A stretch of DNA of 64,000 nt from Spirochaetia bacterium (lineage in GTDB: Bacteria; Spirochaetota; Spirochaetia; CAKZLE01): assembly GCA_963677595.1 (NCBI GenBank), contig OY782041.1:256001-320000 (forward strand). Reading direction: 5' to 3'. Position 1 is the first letter of the stretch, and the number at the start of each line of letters is the position of its first letter. Below, one piece after another: positions 15,744 through 45,891 of the stretch. Position numbers and translations under genes: made by a program. The notes below the pieces were generated by a model. It did no database searches. It was not told the DNA's origin and saw only the letters and a list, made by a program, of their open reading frames with translations.

Positions 15744-15772
15744 TTGTCTCCAAGCCCGCACTACGTTACAAT
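15744..15772 (+). promoter_or_regulatory. Sigma70 promoter upstream of the Moco-type riboswitch
   Basis: TTGTCT (15744-15749), 17 nt, TACAAT (15767-15772); AT-rich upstream region; start site would fall just before the RNA motif. Confidence 0.6.
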
Positions 15773-15781
15773 GAGTGCGTA

Positions 15782-15876
15782 CTTCCGAGTCAGCAAGTCC
15801 TACGGCCCCTGCTATGGACTGCGACCGTTAGAGGTCACCTGGGAAACTGGTGCCCTTCCCGTATTTGGAAAGGAAG
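15782..15876 (+). ncRNA. Molybdenum/tungsten cofactor (Moco/Wco) riboswitch-like RNA motif
   Basis: P1 CTTCC/GGAAG; TCCGAG start; P2 GTC-GCA-GTCC...GGAC-TGC-GAC containing CCTA.G and CTATGG; GAAA-tetraloop stem CACCtGG-GAAA-CTGGTG; terminal CCCTTCCCGTATTTGGAAAGGAAG overlapping the SD of the next gene. Confidence 0.82.
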
Positions 15877-15878
15877 CG

Positions 15879-17363
15879 ATGTTTGGTAGAAGAACTCTCT
15901 CTTGCGGTATCATGATCCTGTGCTGTGTGGTCTTCCCGCTGTCCGGTCTCGAAGTCAGCGTGAACGGAAAGCCATACCAGTCCTTGCATGATACTGAACT
16001 CACAGAACTCATCTCACCCCTCCCCGCCGGGCTGGTCTCTTCGGAGTCCTCTTTGGGTATTGCTGTGTCACAGCTCATCCCCGTGATGTTCGAGGCATGG
16101 CGGATCACCATTGACGGGGTTGTTATATCGGACGACAGCCTGGCAGAACGGCTTGAGCACTCCTACCTCTTCCGGGATGCCGGGGTATGGTCCATTCAGC
16201 TCGATGACGGTCTTATATTCCAGAACACTGAGAGCTTATCGGTCGAGGGGGAAGAACTCCTCGATGATGAGCTAGAGATATGGGTCAGCTGGGAGGGCGA
16301 GGATGAGCTGAGAACCGAGATCTCAGCCTTCGCGGACCGCAATGGTATCGAGGTCACGGTGCTCCATATCCCGAACCCGGAATCCCGCCTGGTCTCCGTT
16401 CTCAGGGGTGGGGGGAACCCTCCCGACCTTATCATGTGCTCTCCCGGGAATCTCTACAGCCTCGTCGAGTCAGGGGCCCTGCAGCCCCTTCCTGCATACC
16501 TCTCGACGGGCCTGGGCCGACAGGGGCTTGACACCTTCTCCTACCAGGGAAAGCAATGGGCCCTTCCGTTCTACTATGACACTCAGCTTCTGATCTACAA
16601 CCCGGAACTCATAGACCTGCCGGGAGGATCGAGTCTCACCCTTTCCGACCTGGAGCGGGCAGTCGCTGCGCTTGTCGGGACTGTCCCGGTCCCCATGAGC
16701 TGGAATGCCTACTCCTCCTATTGGCTGATGCCCTTCCAGGCAAGCTTCGGGAAGGCGCGCCTCACCGAACCGGACGGGTCGATCATCCTTGACGATGCCC
16801 AGACTGAGGCAGCCCTCTCCTACATCGTGAAGCTCGCGCAGCAGGAATACTTCACGCCGCTCGAGCGTGATGCCATGATCTCGTTCTTCGCCTCAGGCCG
16901 TGCCGGGGTGATCTACTCGGCTTCCTACTCGATCCCCTACTTCCAGGAACTTAGGATCCCGTTCGCCGTAGCCCCGGCACTGGTCAATGACCGGACAGGC
17001 TTGCCTGTCTCCCCCATGCTCGATTACAAGGCGATCGGCCTCACCCGGCAGTCAAAGCACCCGGTCCTCGCATACCGGCTGCTCTCCTACCTCATGGGAA
17101 TCGAGGTCCAGACCCGTTTCAACCAGCAGCTCTTCAAGCTCCCGGCCAACACCTATGCACAGCAGCTGCTTGAGGAGAGCACTGCCTACTACCGGACCAT
17201 AACCGACCAGGCTTCCCACGGCCAGACAGTACCGTCGACGGCATCCTATGCAGCCTACAAGAACATCATGTGGAAGCTGCTGAGGTTCGCCCTCTCCGGG
17301 CAGCTGAGCCCTTCCGCAGTCCTGGAACAGGGAGAGCGATTACTGAAGGAGACACTGCCGTAG
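15879..17363 (+). CDS. ABC solute-binding protein (family 1, MalE-like) with extra N-terminal domain
   Basis: Start corrected to ATG 15879 directly after the riboswitch; signal peptide; PPDLIM, GALQPL, WALPFYYDTQLLIYNPELI, FASGRAGVI; ~130 aa extra region before the SBP domain. Confidence 0.8.
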   Translation: MFGRRTLSCGIMILCCVVFPLSGLEVSVNGKPYQSLHDTELTELISPLPAGLVSSESSLGIAVSQLIPVMFEAWRITIDGVVISDDSLAERLEHSYLFRDAGVWSIQLDDGLIFQNTESLSVEGEELLDDELEIWVSWEGEDELRTEISAFADRNGIEVTVLHIPNPESRLVSVLRGGGNPPDLIMCSPGNLYSLVESGALQPLPAYLSTGLGRQGLDTFSYQGKQWALPFYYDTQLLIYNPELIDLPGGSSLTLSDLERAVAALVGTVPVPMSWNAYSSYWLMPFQASFGKARLTEPDGSIILDDAQTEAALSYIVKLAQQEYFTPLERDAMISFFASGRAGVIYSASYSIPYFQELRIPFAVAPALVNDRTGLPVSPMLDYKAIGLTRQSKHPVLAYRLLSYLMGIEVQTRFNQQLFKLPANTYAQQLLEESTAYYRTITDQASHGQTVPSTASYAAYKNIMWKLLRFALSGQLSPSAVLEQGERLLKETLP

Positions 17364-17408
17364 CAGTGTAATACCGAATATAAGAAAAAACTTTAACAGG
17401 AGTAACTG

Positions 17409-18791
17409 ATGAACAAGAGATTCTTAGGCGTTCTTTTACTGATGCTGGGCATCCTGCTGCTGGCAGGCTGCACCACCACCGAAAGCGGGACTTCCGTCGA
17501 GGTGACAGCAGAGACTGAAGTCGATGCAGTCGCCCATGCGACACCGGCAGGTGAAGGGTGGCATGTGACCCTCACAGGGGTCCGGACGGACGAGCTGTGG
17601 GAATCACAGGCAGCTGCAGATCCCAAATGGCTGGAGACTGTCCAGTTCGAGAAGAAGGGGGAGCTGAGGACCTATACGGCCCTCGCCTTCTCGGAAGTGA
17701 TCGCCATGATCGACGATGCGGACGGGTCCATGCCCTATAGCTTCCAGCAGGGGGCTTGGGATGCAGGTTATGACATCACCGTGACCGCCGCGGACGGGTT
17801 TGCCGCGACCTTCAACACGGCTGACTACCCGGCAGAAGGGATCTACCTCGCAGTGACTCAGGACGGGGAGAGCACCCTCCCCATGCTCGTCGGCGATATC
17901 CCGGGGCAGATCCAGGTCAAGGACATCGTCTCCATCGAGACCTCACTCGCACCGGTGGCGCTCGAGGAGAACCAGTTCGAGTTCATCCTCGAGATCGGGG
18001 ATAAGACAGCGACCTTCACCCTTGCCGAGCTCGAGGATCATCCCTACTTCATCGAAGGTCCCGGGGAGTACAAGAACACCTATGACAACGTCTTCACCCA
18101 CGTCTGGGGCGGGGTCAAGCTCGTGGACCTCATCAGCGACGTGTTCCCGCTCACGGCTGACCAGAGTGTGACCATCATCGCCACTGACGGCTACGAGATG
18201 GACTACAGCGGGTCACAGCTGCTTGACCAGGCAGACGGGACCTGGATCCTCGCATTCATCGAAGACGGGGAGTATATGCCGGAAGACCCGGGATACATCC
18301 GCCTGGTGAAGGTCGGCCCCGACACACCCCAGATCACCGGTCACATCTCTGCACGTATGGTGAAGAAGGTGCAGATCAAGGATGTCTCCTTCACTGACTT
18401 CACCCTCTCCATCGACAGCGCTGCAGGGACCGAGGAGCTCGACCGGCAGACGATCCAGAGCGGCGTGACTTCACAGAGAACGACCGTGAACTACTTCAAC
18501 AAGAAGAGCGGGGAGACTGTCAGCTACCTGGGTCTTCCCCTGTTCGAATTCCTTGCACACTATGACGGCTACGACACGGTCACCGTCGAAGCTTCGGACA
18601 GGTACTCGATCACCCTCGCTGCAGATGAGGTAGCCGGGAACAGCGATGTCATCCTGGCCATGTACTACGGTGACGGGAGTGAGCTCTCTGAGAATGAAGC
18701 CCCCCTCATCATCGTATGGGATGCCGAAGCTGACCTCGTGCCTGCCGGCATCAAGGCAGTCAGGAGCGTGACCCGCCTCATCCTGGACTGA
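17409..18791 (+). CDS. Lipoprotein with three tandem molybdopterin-binding (sulfite-oxidase-fold-like) repeats
   Basis: Lipobox LLAGC; three repeats with [YW]xG-like, A[AST]D[GR][FY], [IY]LA..DG and V[KR]xVxxI-like motifs; no Cys besides the lipobox. Confidence 0.7.
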   Translation: MNKRFLGVLLLMLGILLLAGCTTTESGTSVEVTAETEVDAVAHATPAGEGWHVTLTGVRTDELWESQAAADPKWLETVQFEKKGELRTYTALAFSEVIAMIDDADGSMPYSFQQGAWDAGYDITVTAADGFAATFNTADYPAEGIYLAVTQDGESTLPMLVGDIPGQIQVKDIVSIETSLAPVALEENQFEFILEIGDKTATFTLAELEDHPYFIEGPGEYKNTYDNVFTHVWGGVKLVDLISDVFPLTADQSVTIIATDGYEMDYSGSQLLDQADGTWILAFIEDGEYMPEDPGYIRLVKVGPDTPQITGHISARMVKKVQIKDVSFTDFTLSIDSAAGTEELDRQTIQSGVTSQRTTVNYFNKKSGETVSYLGLPLFEFLAHYDGYDTVTVEASDRYSITLAADEVAGNSDVILAMYYGDGSELSENEAPLIIVWDAEADLVPAGIKAVRSVTRLILD

Positions 18792-18793
18792 CC

Positions 18794-20794
18794 ATGAGGA
18801 TACGACCATCGCTTCACACCAGGTGGCAGCTGCTGCTTCCGGCGGCGCTCATCGTCGCAGCTGCAGGAGTCGCCCCGTTCGCTGAAGCGGTGGTCACCTC
18901 ATTCTTCCACGACATCTACGGGCAGAGAAGCCCCGCAGGGTTCGACAACTACCGGTACCTCCTCTCAGACCGGGGCTTCTCCTACAGTCTCAGGATCAGT
19001 CTGGTCTGGGCACTAGGGAACACGGTCCTGGGGTTAGGAACTTCCCTCCTGCTGGCCTGGCGGATCTTCATGCGGGGAAGGAGGGGCAAGCTCCTCTACC
19101 TCTCCCTGGTCATCCCCTGGGCAGTCCCCGTCTATATCGCCGTCCCGGTCTGGAGGTCCTTCTTCCATGGGGACGGGGGCACCTCGCTCTTCTCCACGCT
19201 CACGGGGATCCATATAAACCTGCTCACCGACCCGATTGCGGCATTCTGCTCGACACTGTGGGTAAGCGTCTGGCTTTCGGTCCCCTTTACCGGGTTCGTC
19301 CTCCTGAGCAGCCTCAAGCGCATCCCCGGGAGCCTCAGGGAAGCCGCCATGATCGACGGGGCAGACAGCAGGCAGGTCCTGCAGTATGTCTACCTGCCGC
19401 AGATCAGGAATGCGATCGCCGTCATGTCGGTGCTGAACGTCATCAAGTTCCTGAAGGAGTTCAATGTCATCTTCCTCATGACCTCGGGCGGCCCGCCGCT
19501 GGTCTCGGGGATCACTGACCGGTTCATCATCGGGGCAACGACCACCCTCGATGTCCTGGTCTACGAGATCTTCCAGACCCGGGAGGATATAGGGATCTCA
19601 TCAGCCTATGCCGTGCTCCTCGCGGGGGTGGTCATCCTTATCATGCTCCTCTGGCTGCGGGCCCGGAAGGGGAACAGCTCACGGATCCTGCCGGCAGTGC
19701 TCACCGGTCTCGCGCAGGTACCCTTTTCCGGCATCCCGGGCATCATCCTTGCTGTTCTTTATCCGGTCAGCGGGATCGTTTCCAGGAAGGCCTTCAGGCT
19801 TACGCTCATCCTGCACGCGGGACTGACCTGCTTCATGGTCATCTCCAGGGGATTCCTGGAAGGCTTCTCCCCGGGGTTCCCCCTCGCCCTGCTGGTGTAC
19901 CTGATCATCTTCTCGAAAGACGGGGCAGCTTCCCGCCCGGTGAGGACCCCACAGGGCTTCTCACGGACTGCCACCAGACTGTTCACCCTGACCACGCTGG
20001 TCCTCTCCTGTCTGTTCATCATCGCGGCCCTGCTCATGGTGTTCATCGTCATCTGGCTGAGCTTCTCCGGCCTCGGCAGCAGCTACATAGACTCGCTCAT
20101 TCCCCCCTTCCCGACGGTTACCAACTATGTGAAGATCATCGTGGATGAGGGGATCCTCAGGCACTTCCTCAACACCCTGCTGCTCTCAGGCTCCACTGCC
20201 CTACTGCTTCCCCTCATCATCATGCCTGCTGCCTACTACCTGCTGCACCGGGGGAACAGGACCGCCTTCGGCGTCATGACCTTTCTCCAGATCCTCGGGC
20301 TCTATGGCGGTATGCACTCCCTCATCCCGCTCTACTCATTCTTCCGGCGGCTTCACTTGATCGACTCGTACATCCCGCTCGTCATGATCTACCTCAACCA
20401 CGCGATCCCCTCTGCCTTGTTCACGACGCTCGCCTATATGGAGAAGATCCCTGCTTCCTTCGAGGACCAGGCGCGCCTCGAGGGGGTAAGCGCGTTCCAG
20501 TACCTTCGGCTGATCCTCTTCCCGGTCAGTCTCCCGATCATCGGGGTGAACATGGTCCTGGCATTCATCGCAGCATGGAACGGGTTCATGGCTCCCCTGC
20601 TCTTCCTCAACACGGAGGGCAGCTTCCCCATCAGCGTCAAGCTCTTCTCCCTCGTGGGAAATCTCGCGTCAGGCTTCCCGAAGTGGAATCTCTTCGCCGC
20701 TGCATCGCTCATCAACTGCCTGATCCTCTCAGTGCTCCTCCACCGGGTACGTAAACCGATCAATGACAGCAGTCTGCAGTCCATCATGGAATGA
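18794..20794 (+). CDS. Fused MalF+MalG-type carbohydrate (CUT1) ABC permease
   Basis: 666 aa with two EAA loops (LREAAMIDGAD; FEDQARLEGVS), GFDNYRYLL, FIAAWNGF. Confidence 0.85.
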   Translation: MRIRPSLHTRWQLLLPAALIVAAAGVAPFAEAVVTSFFHDIYGQRSPAGFDNYRYLLSDRGFSYSLRISLVWALGNTVLGLGTSLLLAWRIFMRGRRGKLLYLSLVIPWAVPVYIAVPVWRSFFHGDGGTSLFSTLTGIHINLLTDPIAAFCSTLWVSVWLSVPFTGFVLLSSLKRIPGSLREAAMIDGADSRQVLQYVYLPQIRNAIAVMSVLNVIKFLKEFNVIFLMTSGGPPLVSGITDRFIIGATTTLDVLVYEIFQTREDIGISSAYAVLLAGVVILIMLLWLRARKGNSSRILPAVLTGLAQVPFSGIPGIILAVLYPVSGIVSRKAFRLTLILHAGLTCFMVISRGFLEGFSPGFPLALLVYLIIFSKDGAASRPVRTPQGFSRTATRLFTLTTLVLSCLFIIAALLMVFIVIWLSFSGLGSSYIDSLIPPFPTVTNYVKIIVDEGILRHFLNTLLLSGSTALLLPLIIMPAAYYLLHRGNRTAFGVMTFLQILGLYGGMHSLIPLYSFFRRLHLIDSYIPLVMIYLNHAIPSALFTTLAYMEKIPASFEDQARLEGVSAFQYLRLILFPVSLPIIGVNMVLAFIAAWNGFMAPLLFLNTEGSFPISVKLFSLVGNLASGFPKWNLFAAASLINCLILSVLLHRVRKPINDSSLQSIME

Positions 20795-21456: not shown

Positions 21457-22206
21457 ATGACTATGAGAAAGAAAGGAAGATTCTACCAGACACGATTCAC
21501 CTGGTACCAGGGACTGAGGCTGCTGTTCCAGCTGCTCTACCTCACAGCGACCGTGTTCGCCATAGTCGGCAAGGACTTCATCGTCGCGATTGCCCTTATG
21601 GCGATCGCCCTGATCGGCGGGGCATGGTTCTGCGGCTGGCTCTGCCCCTTCGGGATGGTGCAGGAATGGTTGGGGAGGCTCGGCAACCGGCTGTTCCGGT
21701 TCAAGCTCACGATCCCGCAGAAGGCGGAGAAGTACCTGAGGCTGCTTCGGTATCTCCTGCTGGCCGCCGGGACAGCAGGGCTGATGGCCCTGGGATTCCT
21801 CAGTGCCCCCTATAACACCTTCATCAGTTCGATCAGCGGCGTCGCCGCATCGATCACGGTGACTGCCTGGGTACTGCTAGGACTCTTCCTGGCAGCTTCC
21901 CTGGTCATAGACCGCCCGTTCTGCAGGTACTTCTGCACTGAAGGGGCACGATACGGGGTGCTTAGCCTGGGCAGGCTCTTCACCATACGCAGGAATGAAG
22001 AGAGCTGTGTCAGCTGCGGGATCTGTGACAGGGCCTGCCCGACACAGGTAGTGATATCGACGAAGAGGCAGGTACGGAATGCACAGTGTATCAACTGCAT
22101 GGAGTGCATCGCATCCTGCCCGAAACCGGGAACCCTCACCTACGGGTTCGCATTCACGAGAAAGAAGAAGGGACAAGGAGAAGATACAGATGAGAAAGAT
22201 GAGTAA
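21457..22206 (+). CDS. NapH/MauN-like membrane 4Fe-4S protein
   Basis: FCGWLCPFG, RPFCRYFC, CVSCGICDRACP, CINCMECIASCP. Confidence 0.88.
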   Translation: MTMRKKGRFYQTRFTWYQGLRLLFQLLYLTATVFAIVGKDFIVAIALMAIALIGGAWFCGWLCPFGMVQEWLGRLGNRLFRFKLTIPQKAEKYLRLLRYLLLAAGTAGLMALGFLSAPYNTFISSISGVAASITVTAWVLLGLFLAASLVIDRPFCRYFCTEGARYGVLSLGRLFTIRRNEESCVSCGICDRACPTQVVISTKRQVRNAQCINCMECIASCPKPGTLTYGFAFTRKKKGQGEDTDEKDE

Positions 22207-22600
22207 GGTTTCATTGGCAGTCACGATACTGCTTGTAGCGGGGATCACCATGCTGTTTAGCTCAGCACGGTTCTTCGGGCACGCATCATATGCGGAAGTG
22301 CTCGGGATCAATGTGACTGAACAGTCCTATACTGACGGTATCTACACTGGTACTGCCGACGGGTTCCGCCCCGGTATTGTGGTGGAAGTAGCGATCGAGG
22401 AGAGCTCGGTAGCATCGGTAACGGTTACCGAACACCACGAGATCGGCCCGATGTACTGGAGCAGGCCTGTATCACTGATCCCGGCAAGCGTGGTAGAGCA
22501 GCAGAGTACTGCAGTGGACACGATCTCAGGGGCAACAGCCACCAGCAAGGGAATCCTTGCCGCCGTGGAGGATGCCCTGGGCAAGGCCCAGGTGCAGTAG
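22190..22600 (+). CDS. Extracytoplasmic FMN-binding (flavinylation) domain protein
   Basis: YTDGIYTGTADG, VDTISGATATS flavinylation motif; start ATG 22190 after AAGGAG. Confidence 0.85.
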   Translation: MRKMSKVSLAVTILLVAGITMLFSSARFFGHASYAEVLGINVTEQSYTDGIYTGTADGFRPGIVVEVAIEESSVASVTVTEHHEIGPMYWSRPVSLIPASVVEQQSTAVDTISGATATSKGILAAVEDALGKAQVQ

Positions 22601-45656: not shown

Positions 45657-45743
45657 GATCCATATCTTTGGATTGAGCTCCAAAGGATGAAATATCCTAA
45701 AATAGTCCAAAAAAAATAAAAATAATCAAAGATTTCTCCCATA

Positions 45744-45891
45744 TTTCAGCGTACTCTTGTCCTATACCAAGGGGAAAGAGGTGAGAATCCTCTGCGAGCC
45801 CGTCACTGTGAACATGGGGATGCATGCAATTCATCCAAGCCATGTAAGCCAGGTTACCTTGAGAAAACAGAGAAGCTTCGTGGATCAAGCT
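45744..45891 (+). ncRNA. Cobalamin riboswitch (short form) with kissing-loop hairpin
   Basis: AAGGGGAA, AGAGG-TGAGAAT-CCTCT T-loop stem, CACTGTGA, B12 box TAAGCCAGGTTACCT; downstream AGCTT-CGTGGATC-AAGCT hairpin whose TTCGTGGA can pair with TCTGCGAG. Confidence 0.82.

Follow-up and report, generated by a model that had tools for sequence, protein, structure and literature searches.

A three-gene ATP-binding cassette (ABC)-type transport unit, here called the module, occupies positions 15744 to 20794 of the analyzed stretch of Spirochaetia bacterium DNA (the window: 64,000 nucleotides [nt], positions 256,001 to 320,000 of contig OY782041.1, assembly GCA_963677595.1). The data indicate that this unit likely salvages a ready-made, metal-loaded pterin cofactor, probably tungstopterin, for aldehyde oxidoreductases (AORs). 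They consist of direct observations of an RNA element and its overlap with the ribosome site, of gene order, of folds (as predicted models) and of co-occurrence across genomes. An earlier note on this DNA had proposed scavenging of the molybdenum or tungsten cofactor (Moco or Wco), molybdopterin (MPT) or cyclic pyranopterin monophosphate (cPMP). Scavenging is supported by the present data, but the list of cargos narrows to the metal-loaded cofactor, probably in its tungsten form, because many carriers of the module show neither MoaC nor MoeA. The unit comprises the following features:

15744..15772, + strand: candidate sigma-70-like promoter, TTGTCT-17-TACAAT, 9/12 matches

15771..15891, + strand: Moco/Wco RNA motif RF01055 in its P3-less form, found by covariance model, with the 3′ strand of P1 serving as ribosome site of the next gene

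15879..17363, + strand: MalE-fold (CUT1) solute-binding protein, 494 amino acids (aa), with signal peptide; SBP_bac_1/8

17409..18791, + strand: lipoprotein, 460 aa, lipobox LAGC, with three sulfite-oxidase/PruR-fold repeats (residues ~48-182, 186-326 and 328-460), by PF00174, hhalign and model

18794..20794, + strand: fused MalF-MalG-type permease, 666 aa, with EAA-type loops at residues 183 and 557, by family profiles

The cargo is indicated above all by the distribution of the module. In a family-spread sample of 281 genomes of the class, the lipoprotein was present in 49, AOR in 114, and MoaC in 115; no full-length module turned up among 400 genomes sampled evenly across the phylum. Forty-seven of the 49 carriers encode a tungsten-type AOR, and the module was found in only 2 of 167 AOR-less genomes (both with PF00384-family matches) and in 1 of the 37 genomes with MoaC but no AOR. 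Among AOR genomes, it was carried by 24/36 of those without MoaC versus 23/78 of those with MoaC (odds ratio, 4.8). When the comparison was restricted to a completeness of 90% or more and a contamination of 5% or less, the figures were 14/21 and 13/51, and stratification by family gave an odds ratio of 5.0 for the module versus MoaC absence. Among the AOR genomes of genus g235, MoaC is missing from all four carriers and the module from all four MoaC-positive genomes. In a tree of 40 lipoproteins (those of G439 and G420 were too short and were excluded), MoaC status changes 11 times, with at least 8 of the changes forced by strong branches.

MoaC absence is accompanied by a wider loss of cofactor genes. 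MoeA_C was matched in none of the 24 MoaC-less AOR carriers versus 71/78 MoaC-positive AOR genomes; among 15 MoaC-less carriers tested further, MoeA_N was present in one (G443) and TupA in none, and ModA exceeded its cutoff in 0/5 tested. Within a 61-genome set TupA was found only together with MoaC. MoaE was detected in only 6 of these 61 genomes and was not used as a marker; PF06463 was dropped as a marker of MoaA, having missed the short MoaA of the window genome. The AORs of the MoaC-less carriers look intact, with the CxxCxxxC (iron-sulfur) and D/NxxGL (pterin-binding) motifs in the seven carriers inspected (one copy in G417 is without the tag). In four of five such genomes the module carries the only Moco RNA, while in G417 another precedes an AOR. 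A cell that has AORs but no pterin synthesis, metal insertase or tungstate importer would need the finished cofactor.

The same gene losses bear on whether the module might instead import a metal-free precursor, cPMP or MPT, to be finished by the cell. Both compounds are phosphorylated pyranopterins, which would suit the basic cleft of a sugar-type scaffold; moreover, G443 combines the module and MoeA_N with absence of MoaC, and in G415 a MoaE match is broken by stops. Nevertheless, with no metal insertase or TupA found, MoaC-less carriers would be unable to complete a precursor, or to insert the metal, by the known route, and the MoCF_biosynth matches in three of five tested MoaC-less carriers were CinA-like (two confirmed). 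We regard precursor import as improbable.

The module is a conserved unit. The loci compared comprised 3 genome loci, 80 metagenome loci, and stretches from the genomes designated here by G numbers. Binding protein and permease were both present in 51/52 loci with a close lipoprotein and at least 1 kb on each side, the sole miss being a locus where the contig ends within the permease. An RNA preceded the binding protein in 61/61 loci that had 250 nt or more of upstream sequence, as detected with a covariance model for which 24 of those same RNAs had served as input; these correspond to 45/45 clusters at 90% identity and 30/30 at 70%. The Rfam model independently confirmed the RNA in the window, in L001 and L003, in four loci of a divergent clade, and in five genomes (one under the cutoff). 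Another 16 genome loci yielded 14 RNA matches and two misses without upstream DNA. Nearly all RNA-led loci have a ribosome site a few bases before the start codon. An apparently RNA-less clade was ruled out, the RNA there being a GAAAAG variant. Some loci have a second Moco RNA just downstream of the permease (L061/L062:11763-11897, L068:8149-8269, L078:4619-4774), and a few modules are rearranged: in G462 the RNA directly leads a shortened lipoprotein (L181:3053-3205), and in metagenome loci L046, L059, L063 and L074 the permease is divergent, upstream of the RNA.

The earlier note had proposed to check homologous clusters for retention of the RNA, which is what these counts show, and had named a missing covariance-model match and a setting among glycosidases as signs against its proposal. 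The match was obtained, and no such setting was seen. The flanking genes vary, and the 50 flanking proteins scanned (from 92 listed) included a single glycosidase, which does not adjoin the module, compared to two AORs and two ThiF/MoeB-like proteins; no conserved catabolic or signaling gene was found in these flanks.

The RNA itself matches RF01055 (Moco RNA motif) at 15771-15891 (+) with 53.7 bits (gathering score, 36; E value, 4.6e-10; model positions 1-135). The P3 columns are gapped, as in the tungsten-linked form, and P3-less Moco RNAs track tungsten-cofactor genes according to passages of PMC2408646. In P1, CUUCC (15782-15786) pairs with GGAAG (15872-15876), and the latter is the ribosome site, 5 nt 5′ of the ATG at 15879. 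Taken alone, the window sequence folded no better than its shuffles (z, 0.45). Across 24 homologues, 91% of cells were paired, two-sided changes occurred in 17/25 pairs, and the covariation score was reached by 0/500 shuffles, with slid controls at 38 to 54%, the structure tested having been derived from the same alignment. Stems P1, P2, P4 and P5 covary and P3 is absent, which places the element in the tungsten-linked subclass. The promoter candidate is by itself not significant, four such sites being found versus 2.1 ± 1.7 in shuffles. Of the architecture read from the window in the earlier note, the Moco-type RNA with a P1 overlapping the Shine-Dalgarno site, the MalE-like binding protein with an extra N-terminal domain, the lipoprotein with three molybdopterin-binding-like repeats and the fused MalF-MalG permease were all recovered; for its promoter, a candidate exists at the expected place (15744-15772, +), short of significance above chance. 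Elsewhere in the window there is a cobalamin riboswitch (45728-45879; 41.3 bits).

Three genes follow the RNA on the same strand, separated by 45 and 2 nt, and a convergent Imm5-like gene closes the unit. The first encodes the binding protein, whose true start is the ATG at 15879 and not the TTG at 15744. Its core, residues 129-494, has the MalE fold (Z score, ~40) characteristic of CUT1 binding proteins and is preceded by an extra domain of ~110 residues (~19-128); the nearest solved relatives are maltose-binding proteins (MBPs), at ~20% identity. The cleft appears to have been remade. Its invariant residues are W138, E139, D234, D382, K384, K461, and W465, and in 52/52 rows two of the maltodextrin-stacking tryptophans of MBP are not kept, the W62 position being V/I/L and the W340 position K. 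The positions of D14, E111, Y155, and W230 are kept as E, D, Y and Y, i.e., acidic or mostly aromatic. Such a cleft suits a phosphorylated, partly aromatic anion better, it would seem, than a maltodextrin. The predicted order of strands and helices in the N-terminal domain matches that of a lipoprotein repeat. Profile comparison between the two gave just 3% probability (E value, 0.015; reversed control, 0.15%), no usable Atlas match was available, and fold searches were filled by the MalE core. The domain may be a degenerate fourth sulfite-oxidase-type repeat.

The permease carries a MalF-like half followed by a MalG-like half in a single gene, with two BPD_transp_1 units and their EAA loops as in CUT1 systems. 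No ATPase gene lies in or after the operon at the window locus. The window genome encodes an orphan MalK-type ATPase (G000:C1:607926-609020), ~70% identical to ATPases that lie divergently beside the module in six loci (two of them duplicates), and this candidate partner is likely to be the motor of the module. Downstream of the permease, at 21457-22600, are a NapH-like Fer4_5 membrane protein and a short protein with a TISGAT motif, likely a flavinylation-linked redox pair; the pair also directly follows the permease in L001 and L002 and is not conserved more widely.

An ordinary maltodextrin or sugar importer, lying behind the RNA by chance, would account for the relatedness of the binding protein to MBPs and for the MalF/MalG-like permease halves. 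However, the MalE, MalF and MalG NCBIfam cutoffs were missed widely (51.8 versus 291, 70.7 versus 392, and 65.8 versus 261 bits, respectively), the RNA is kept in every cluster at 70% identity, and the lone flanking glycosidase is not adjacent, making this explanation scarcely credible. Import of tungstate, molybdate or a thiometallate in place of Tup/Mod is also very unlikely. In its favor, Moco RNAs commonly precede oxyanion transporters (PMC2408646, in part), as at tupABC of the window genome, the MoaC-less carriers tested have no TupA, and the cleft lysines are invariant. But the metal would be useless without pterin synthesis and MoeA, and the module is enriched precisely where both are missing; TupA is present in addition to the module in the window genome, G406, G411, and G435; the binding protein has the MalE fold and matched no ModA, TupA or WtpA family; and the pterin-fold domains of its partner would be left unexplained.

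That partner, the lipoprotein, would link the transporter to pterins. It matches PF00174 (32.4 versus 24 bits) and consists of three repeats related to each other by hhalign (r1-r3, 98%; r2-r3, 92%; r1-r2, 72%), each with a D-G-Y/F motif across the family. The predicted model (mean pLDDT, 87.8) retrieved sulfite oxidases, MsrP and four PruR proteins in Foldseek, with target TM scores of 0.64 to 0.71 against the PruR structures. Although the fold is that of sulfite-oxidase-family molybdoenzymes (MsrP/SorA type), their Mo-ligating cysteine was not found: the only cysteine of the lipoprotein is lipobox Cys21, and no other conserved Cys column exists among 86 rows. Since this single cysteine is the lipid anchor, the protein is not a sulfite-oxidase-type enzyme. 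Mapping of the MsrP cysteine onto the repeats was abandoned, the alignments having only 0.2 to 5% probability.

The best Protein Data Bank sequence match of the family profile was PruR 7kom (E value, 0.16), with the N-D-Y of PruR aligned on D260-G-Y262. As reported in sections of PMC11194511, PruR is cysteine-less, and a bound pterin lies between a tryptophan and the tyrosine of N-D-Y, on which it stacks. D260 and Y262, in repeat 2, are present in 86/86 rows. The PruR-type Tyr position is thus kept in all rows in repeat 2, and in 83/86 in repeat 1, with the PruR Asn replaced by Asp; the PruR-type Trp, its position mapped by motif only, is kept in repeat 1 alone (79/86, the window protein excepted). 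A D-x-x-S/T/A-x-A-T/S motif in the disordered linker (residues 37-45; 67/86 homologues) resembles ApbE flavinylation sites. Flavinylation of the linker is not claimed, as the canonical [S/T]GA[S/T] (PMC8238504, in part) occurs in only 5/86 rows.

The repeat domain extends well beyond the module. Distant homologues of the lipoprotein (one named Bipolaricaulota) precede an energy-coupling factor (ECF) importer in eight loci, where a PF09819 (YkoE-family) S component is fused to a C-terminal copy of the repeat domain. Its neighbors are a double ATPase and a CbiQ-type T component, to which three of the loci add another single-domain protein. The ECF-type loci L083-L092 and L094 yielded no Moco RNA. 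In the L083-L094 range, an XRE-type gene stands in place of the RNA (seven of the distant loci have such a gene in the cluster), and the proteins have two or three repeats, with a C-P-C-H motif in repeat 3. A profile search collected 701 clusters with E values of 0.001 or below. Among them are a Mesotoga protein with four repeats and large multirepeat surface proteins bearing SLH or PKD domains, one of the latter named from a Methanoregulaceae archaeon. The coupling of the same domain to two unrelated importer types, CUT1 and ECF, argues for the capture of a micronutrient.

These findings also speak to a different role, in which the cargo would be an organic compound tied to AOR metabolism (an aldehyde, a nucleotide or a sugar derivative), with the lipoprotein acting as a periplasmic pterin sensor or redox partner. 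Any function linked to AOR would be consistent with the close association of module and AOR; the scaffold is of CUT1 type, with the four acidic or aromatic MBP positions kept, and the dinucleotide-binding protein 7c0f has the same fold; PruR is itself a sensor and not a transporter subunit, and the linker motif resembles flavinylation sites. This alternative leaves unexplained, however, the enrichment of the module in genomes without MoaC and MoeA and the arming of their AORs, as well as the use of the repeat domain alongside an ECF importer of unrelated type, and no conserved catabolic or signaling gene lies beside the module. On balance, we consider such a role unlikely.

If the module is a cofactor salvage system, scarcity of the cofactor would open P1 and allow translation of the operon, and the cofactor would close P1 again. 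The lipid-anchored lipoprotein would catch the pterin in its cysteine-less sulfite-oxidase-fold pockets, in PruR-like manner, shielding the labile cofactor, and would hand it to the MalE-like protein, where the loss of the two sugar-stacking tryptophans and the invariant lysines would suit a phosphorylated anion. The fused permease would then import the cofactor, drawing on a shared ATPase of MalK/MsmX type whose gene lies elsewhere. In lineages without moa/moe the module would be the sole cofactor supply, while in the window genome it would spare synthesis.

The window genome encodes nine AORs and has three Moco RNAs, located before the module, before tupABC, and before a FecCD/BtuCD-type ABC system. 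The earlier note had proposed to check it for incomplete moaACDE, but it is not an auxotroph: it has moeA, a short moaA, moaC, a mog/moaB-like gene, a MoaE match and tupABC. The MoaA (G000:C1:1784242-1785042) is 266 aa long without a Mob_synth_C match, and a PF06463 match is absent from most MoaC-positive spirochaetes, which suggests that a short MoaA form exists in the class. Behind the third Moco RNA (G000:C1:3998682-4003263; L004) are a small exported protein and then the FecCD/BtuCD-type permease, ATPase, and binding protein, followed by a protein with a DDTD motif and, on the other strand, a MoaE match. This system is possibly a MolABC-like oxyanion importer or a second cofactor importer.

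Several observations weigh against cofactor salvage. The window genome seems equipped both for cofactor synthesis and, through tupABC, for tungstate import, and 23 of the 47 AOR-positive carriers, the window genome among them, keep MoaC. Conversely, 12/36 MoaC-less AOR genomes have no module, with no Moco RNA in the five checked. Every MoaC-less carrier is a draft assembly, and because moa, moe and tup genes lie in one cluster, a single gap would remove them together; G417, without MoaC, is of the same genus as MoaC-positive G479 and may be such a case. The p-values of the co-occurrence (2e-4, 0.003, and 0.03) are rough and overstated, as related genomes are not independent. Moco RNAs also precede cofactor-using enzymes, as with the AOR in G417, so the RNA alone is no proof of a supply function. 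The window lipoprotein is alone among 86 in having lost both repeat-1 aromatics (F131, Q169). Parts of the literature add that the PruR pocket is too short for Moco (PMC11194511) and that free Moco is unstable outside proteins (PMC9026282).

Assembly gaps should not favor carriers, and they fit poorly with MoaC being absent more often in AOR carriers (24/47) than in AOR noncarriers (12/67). MoaC absence moreover spans all five other genomes of family f1 and all five of f77. The AOR genomes without MoaC, MoeA_C and the module (G403, G410, G414, G442, G444, and seven more) may reflect assembly gaps, another importer, or idle AORs.

Overall, the module is a real, conserved system, and the comparative-genomic support for a cargo not previously described is strong. 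We further think it reasonably likely, as a joint proposition, that many anaerobic spirochaetes are tungsten-cofactor auxotrophs running up to nine AORs on cofactor made by their neighbors, with the module as a dedicated tungstopterin importer and the repeats as a widespread class of capture domains, present in 1 to ~9 copies per protein and able to plug into unrelated importers.

With respect to known systems, the RNA resembles the P3-lacking subclass of RF01055 linked to the tungsten cofactor (Tuco), being above the gathering score, without P3, with the ribosome site in P1 and in an AOR-rich host. The described targets of Moco RNAs are molybdate or tungstate transporters, biosynthesis genes and cofactor-using enzymes, with no pterin-fold CUT1 importer among those in the available portion of PMC2408646. 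The transporter shares with CUT1 importers (MalEFGK, MsmX energized) the MalE fold, the MalF/MalG-like halves, the EAA-type loops and the lack of an operon ATPase, but differs in its fused permease, extra N-terminal domain, remade cleft, obligate lipoprotein partner, control by a cofactor RNA, and lack of a conserved glycosidase. Like PruR (7kom, 7kos, 7rkb, 7kp2), the lipoprotein is an exported, Cys-less sulfite-oxidase fold with the pterin-stacking tyrosine position kept. PruR is a single ~170-aa domain with a DcpA-type signaling partner and small non-Moco pterins as ligands (PMC11194511, in part), whereas the lipoprotein has three repeats, a lipid anchor, and importer partners in 51/52 loci.

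Riboswitch-controlled importers exist for other cofactors, namely BtuFCD for cobalamin and YkoEDC for thiamine/hydroxymethylpyrimidine. The module follows the same logic, with a cofactor-sensing RNA that shuts off uptake, uptake that is kept where synthesis is lost, and accessory capture proteins, but on a different scaffold and with a Mo/W pyranopterin cofactor as proposed cargo. According to the review PMC9026282, as far as its consulted sections go, every cell that uses Moco has to synthesize it, the only known exception being Caenorhabditis elegans, by a mechanism not known. Dietary Moco uptake by C. elegans resembles the module in that the cofactor is made by another organism; the differences are that the user is an animal, the Moco is protein bound, and the transporter is unknown (same sections of PMC9026282). 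A bacterial Moco importer was not found in the open-license literature searched, nor were the cargo, capture protein or auxotrophy found described there; no such importer appears in the consulted passages of PMC2408646, PMC3766115, PMC13259868, and PMC9246946 (the supplementary gene lists of the first two being outside this scope). The type of machine, a riboswitch-controlled cofactor importer, is already known, while its cargo, capture protein and auxotrophy are new to that literature.

If the proposal is true, a bacterial importer and the lineages that depend on it would overturn the rule that Moco is made by its user, and the Mo/W cofactor would join the vitamins, like B12, that are exchanged in anaerobic communities. 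This would explain genomes that have tungsten enzymes but no moa/moe. It would also point to a growth factor that uncultured spirochaetes may be lacking and provide a source of proteins that may bind and stabilize this labile cofactor.

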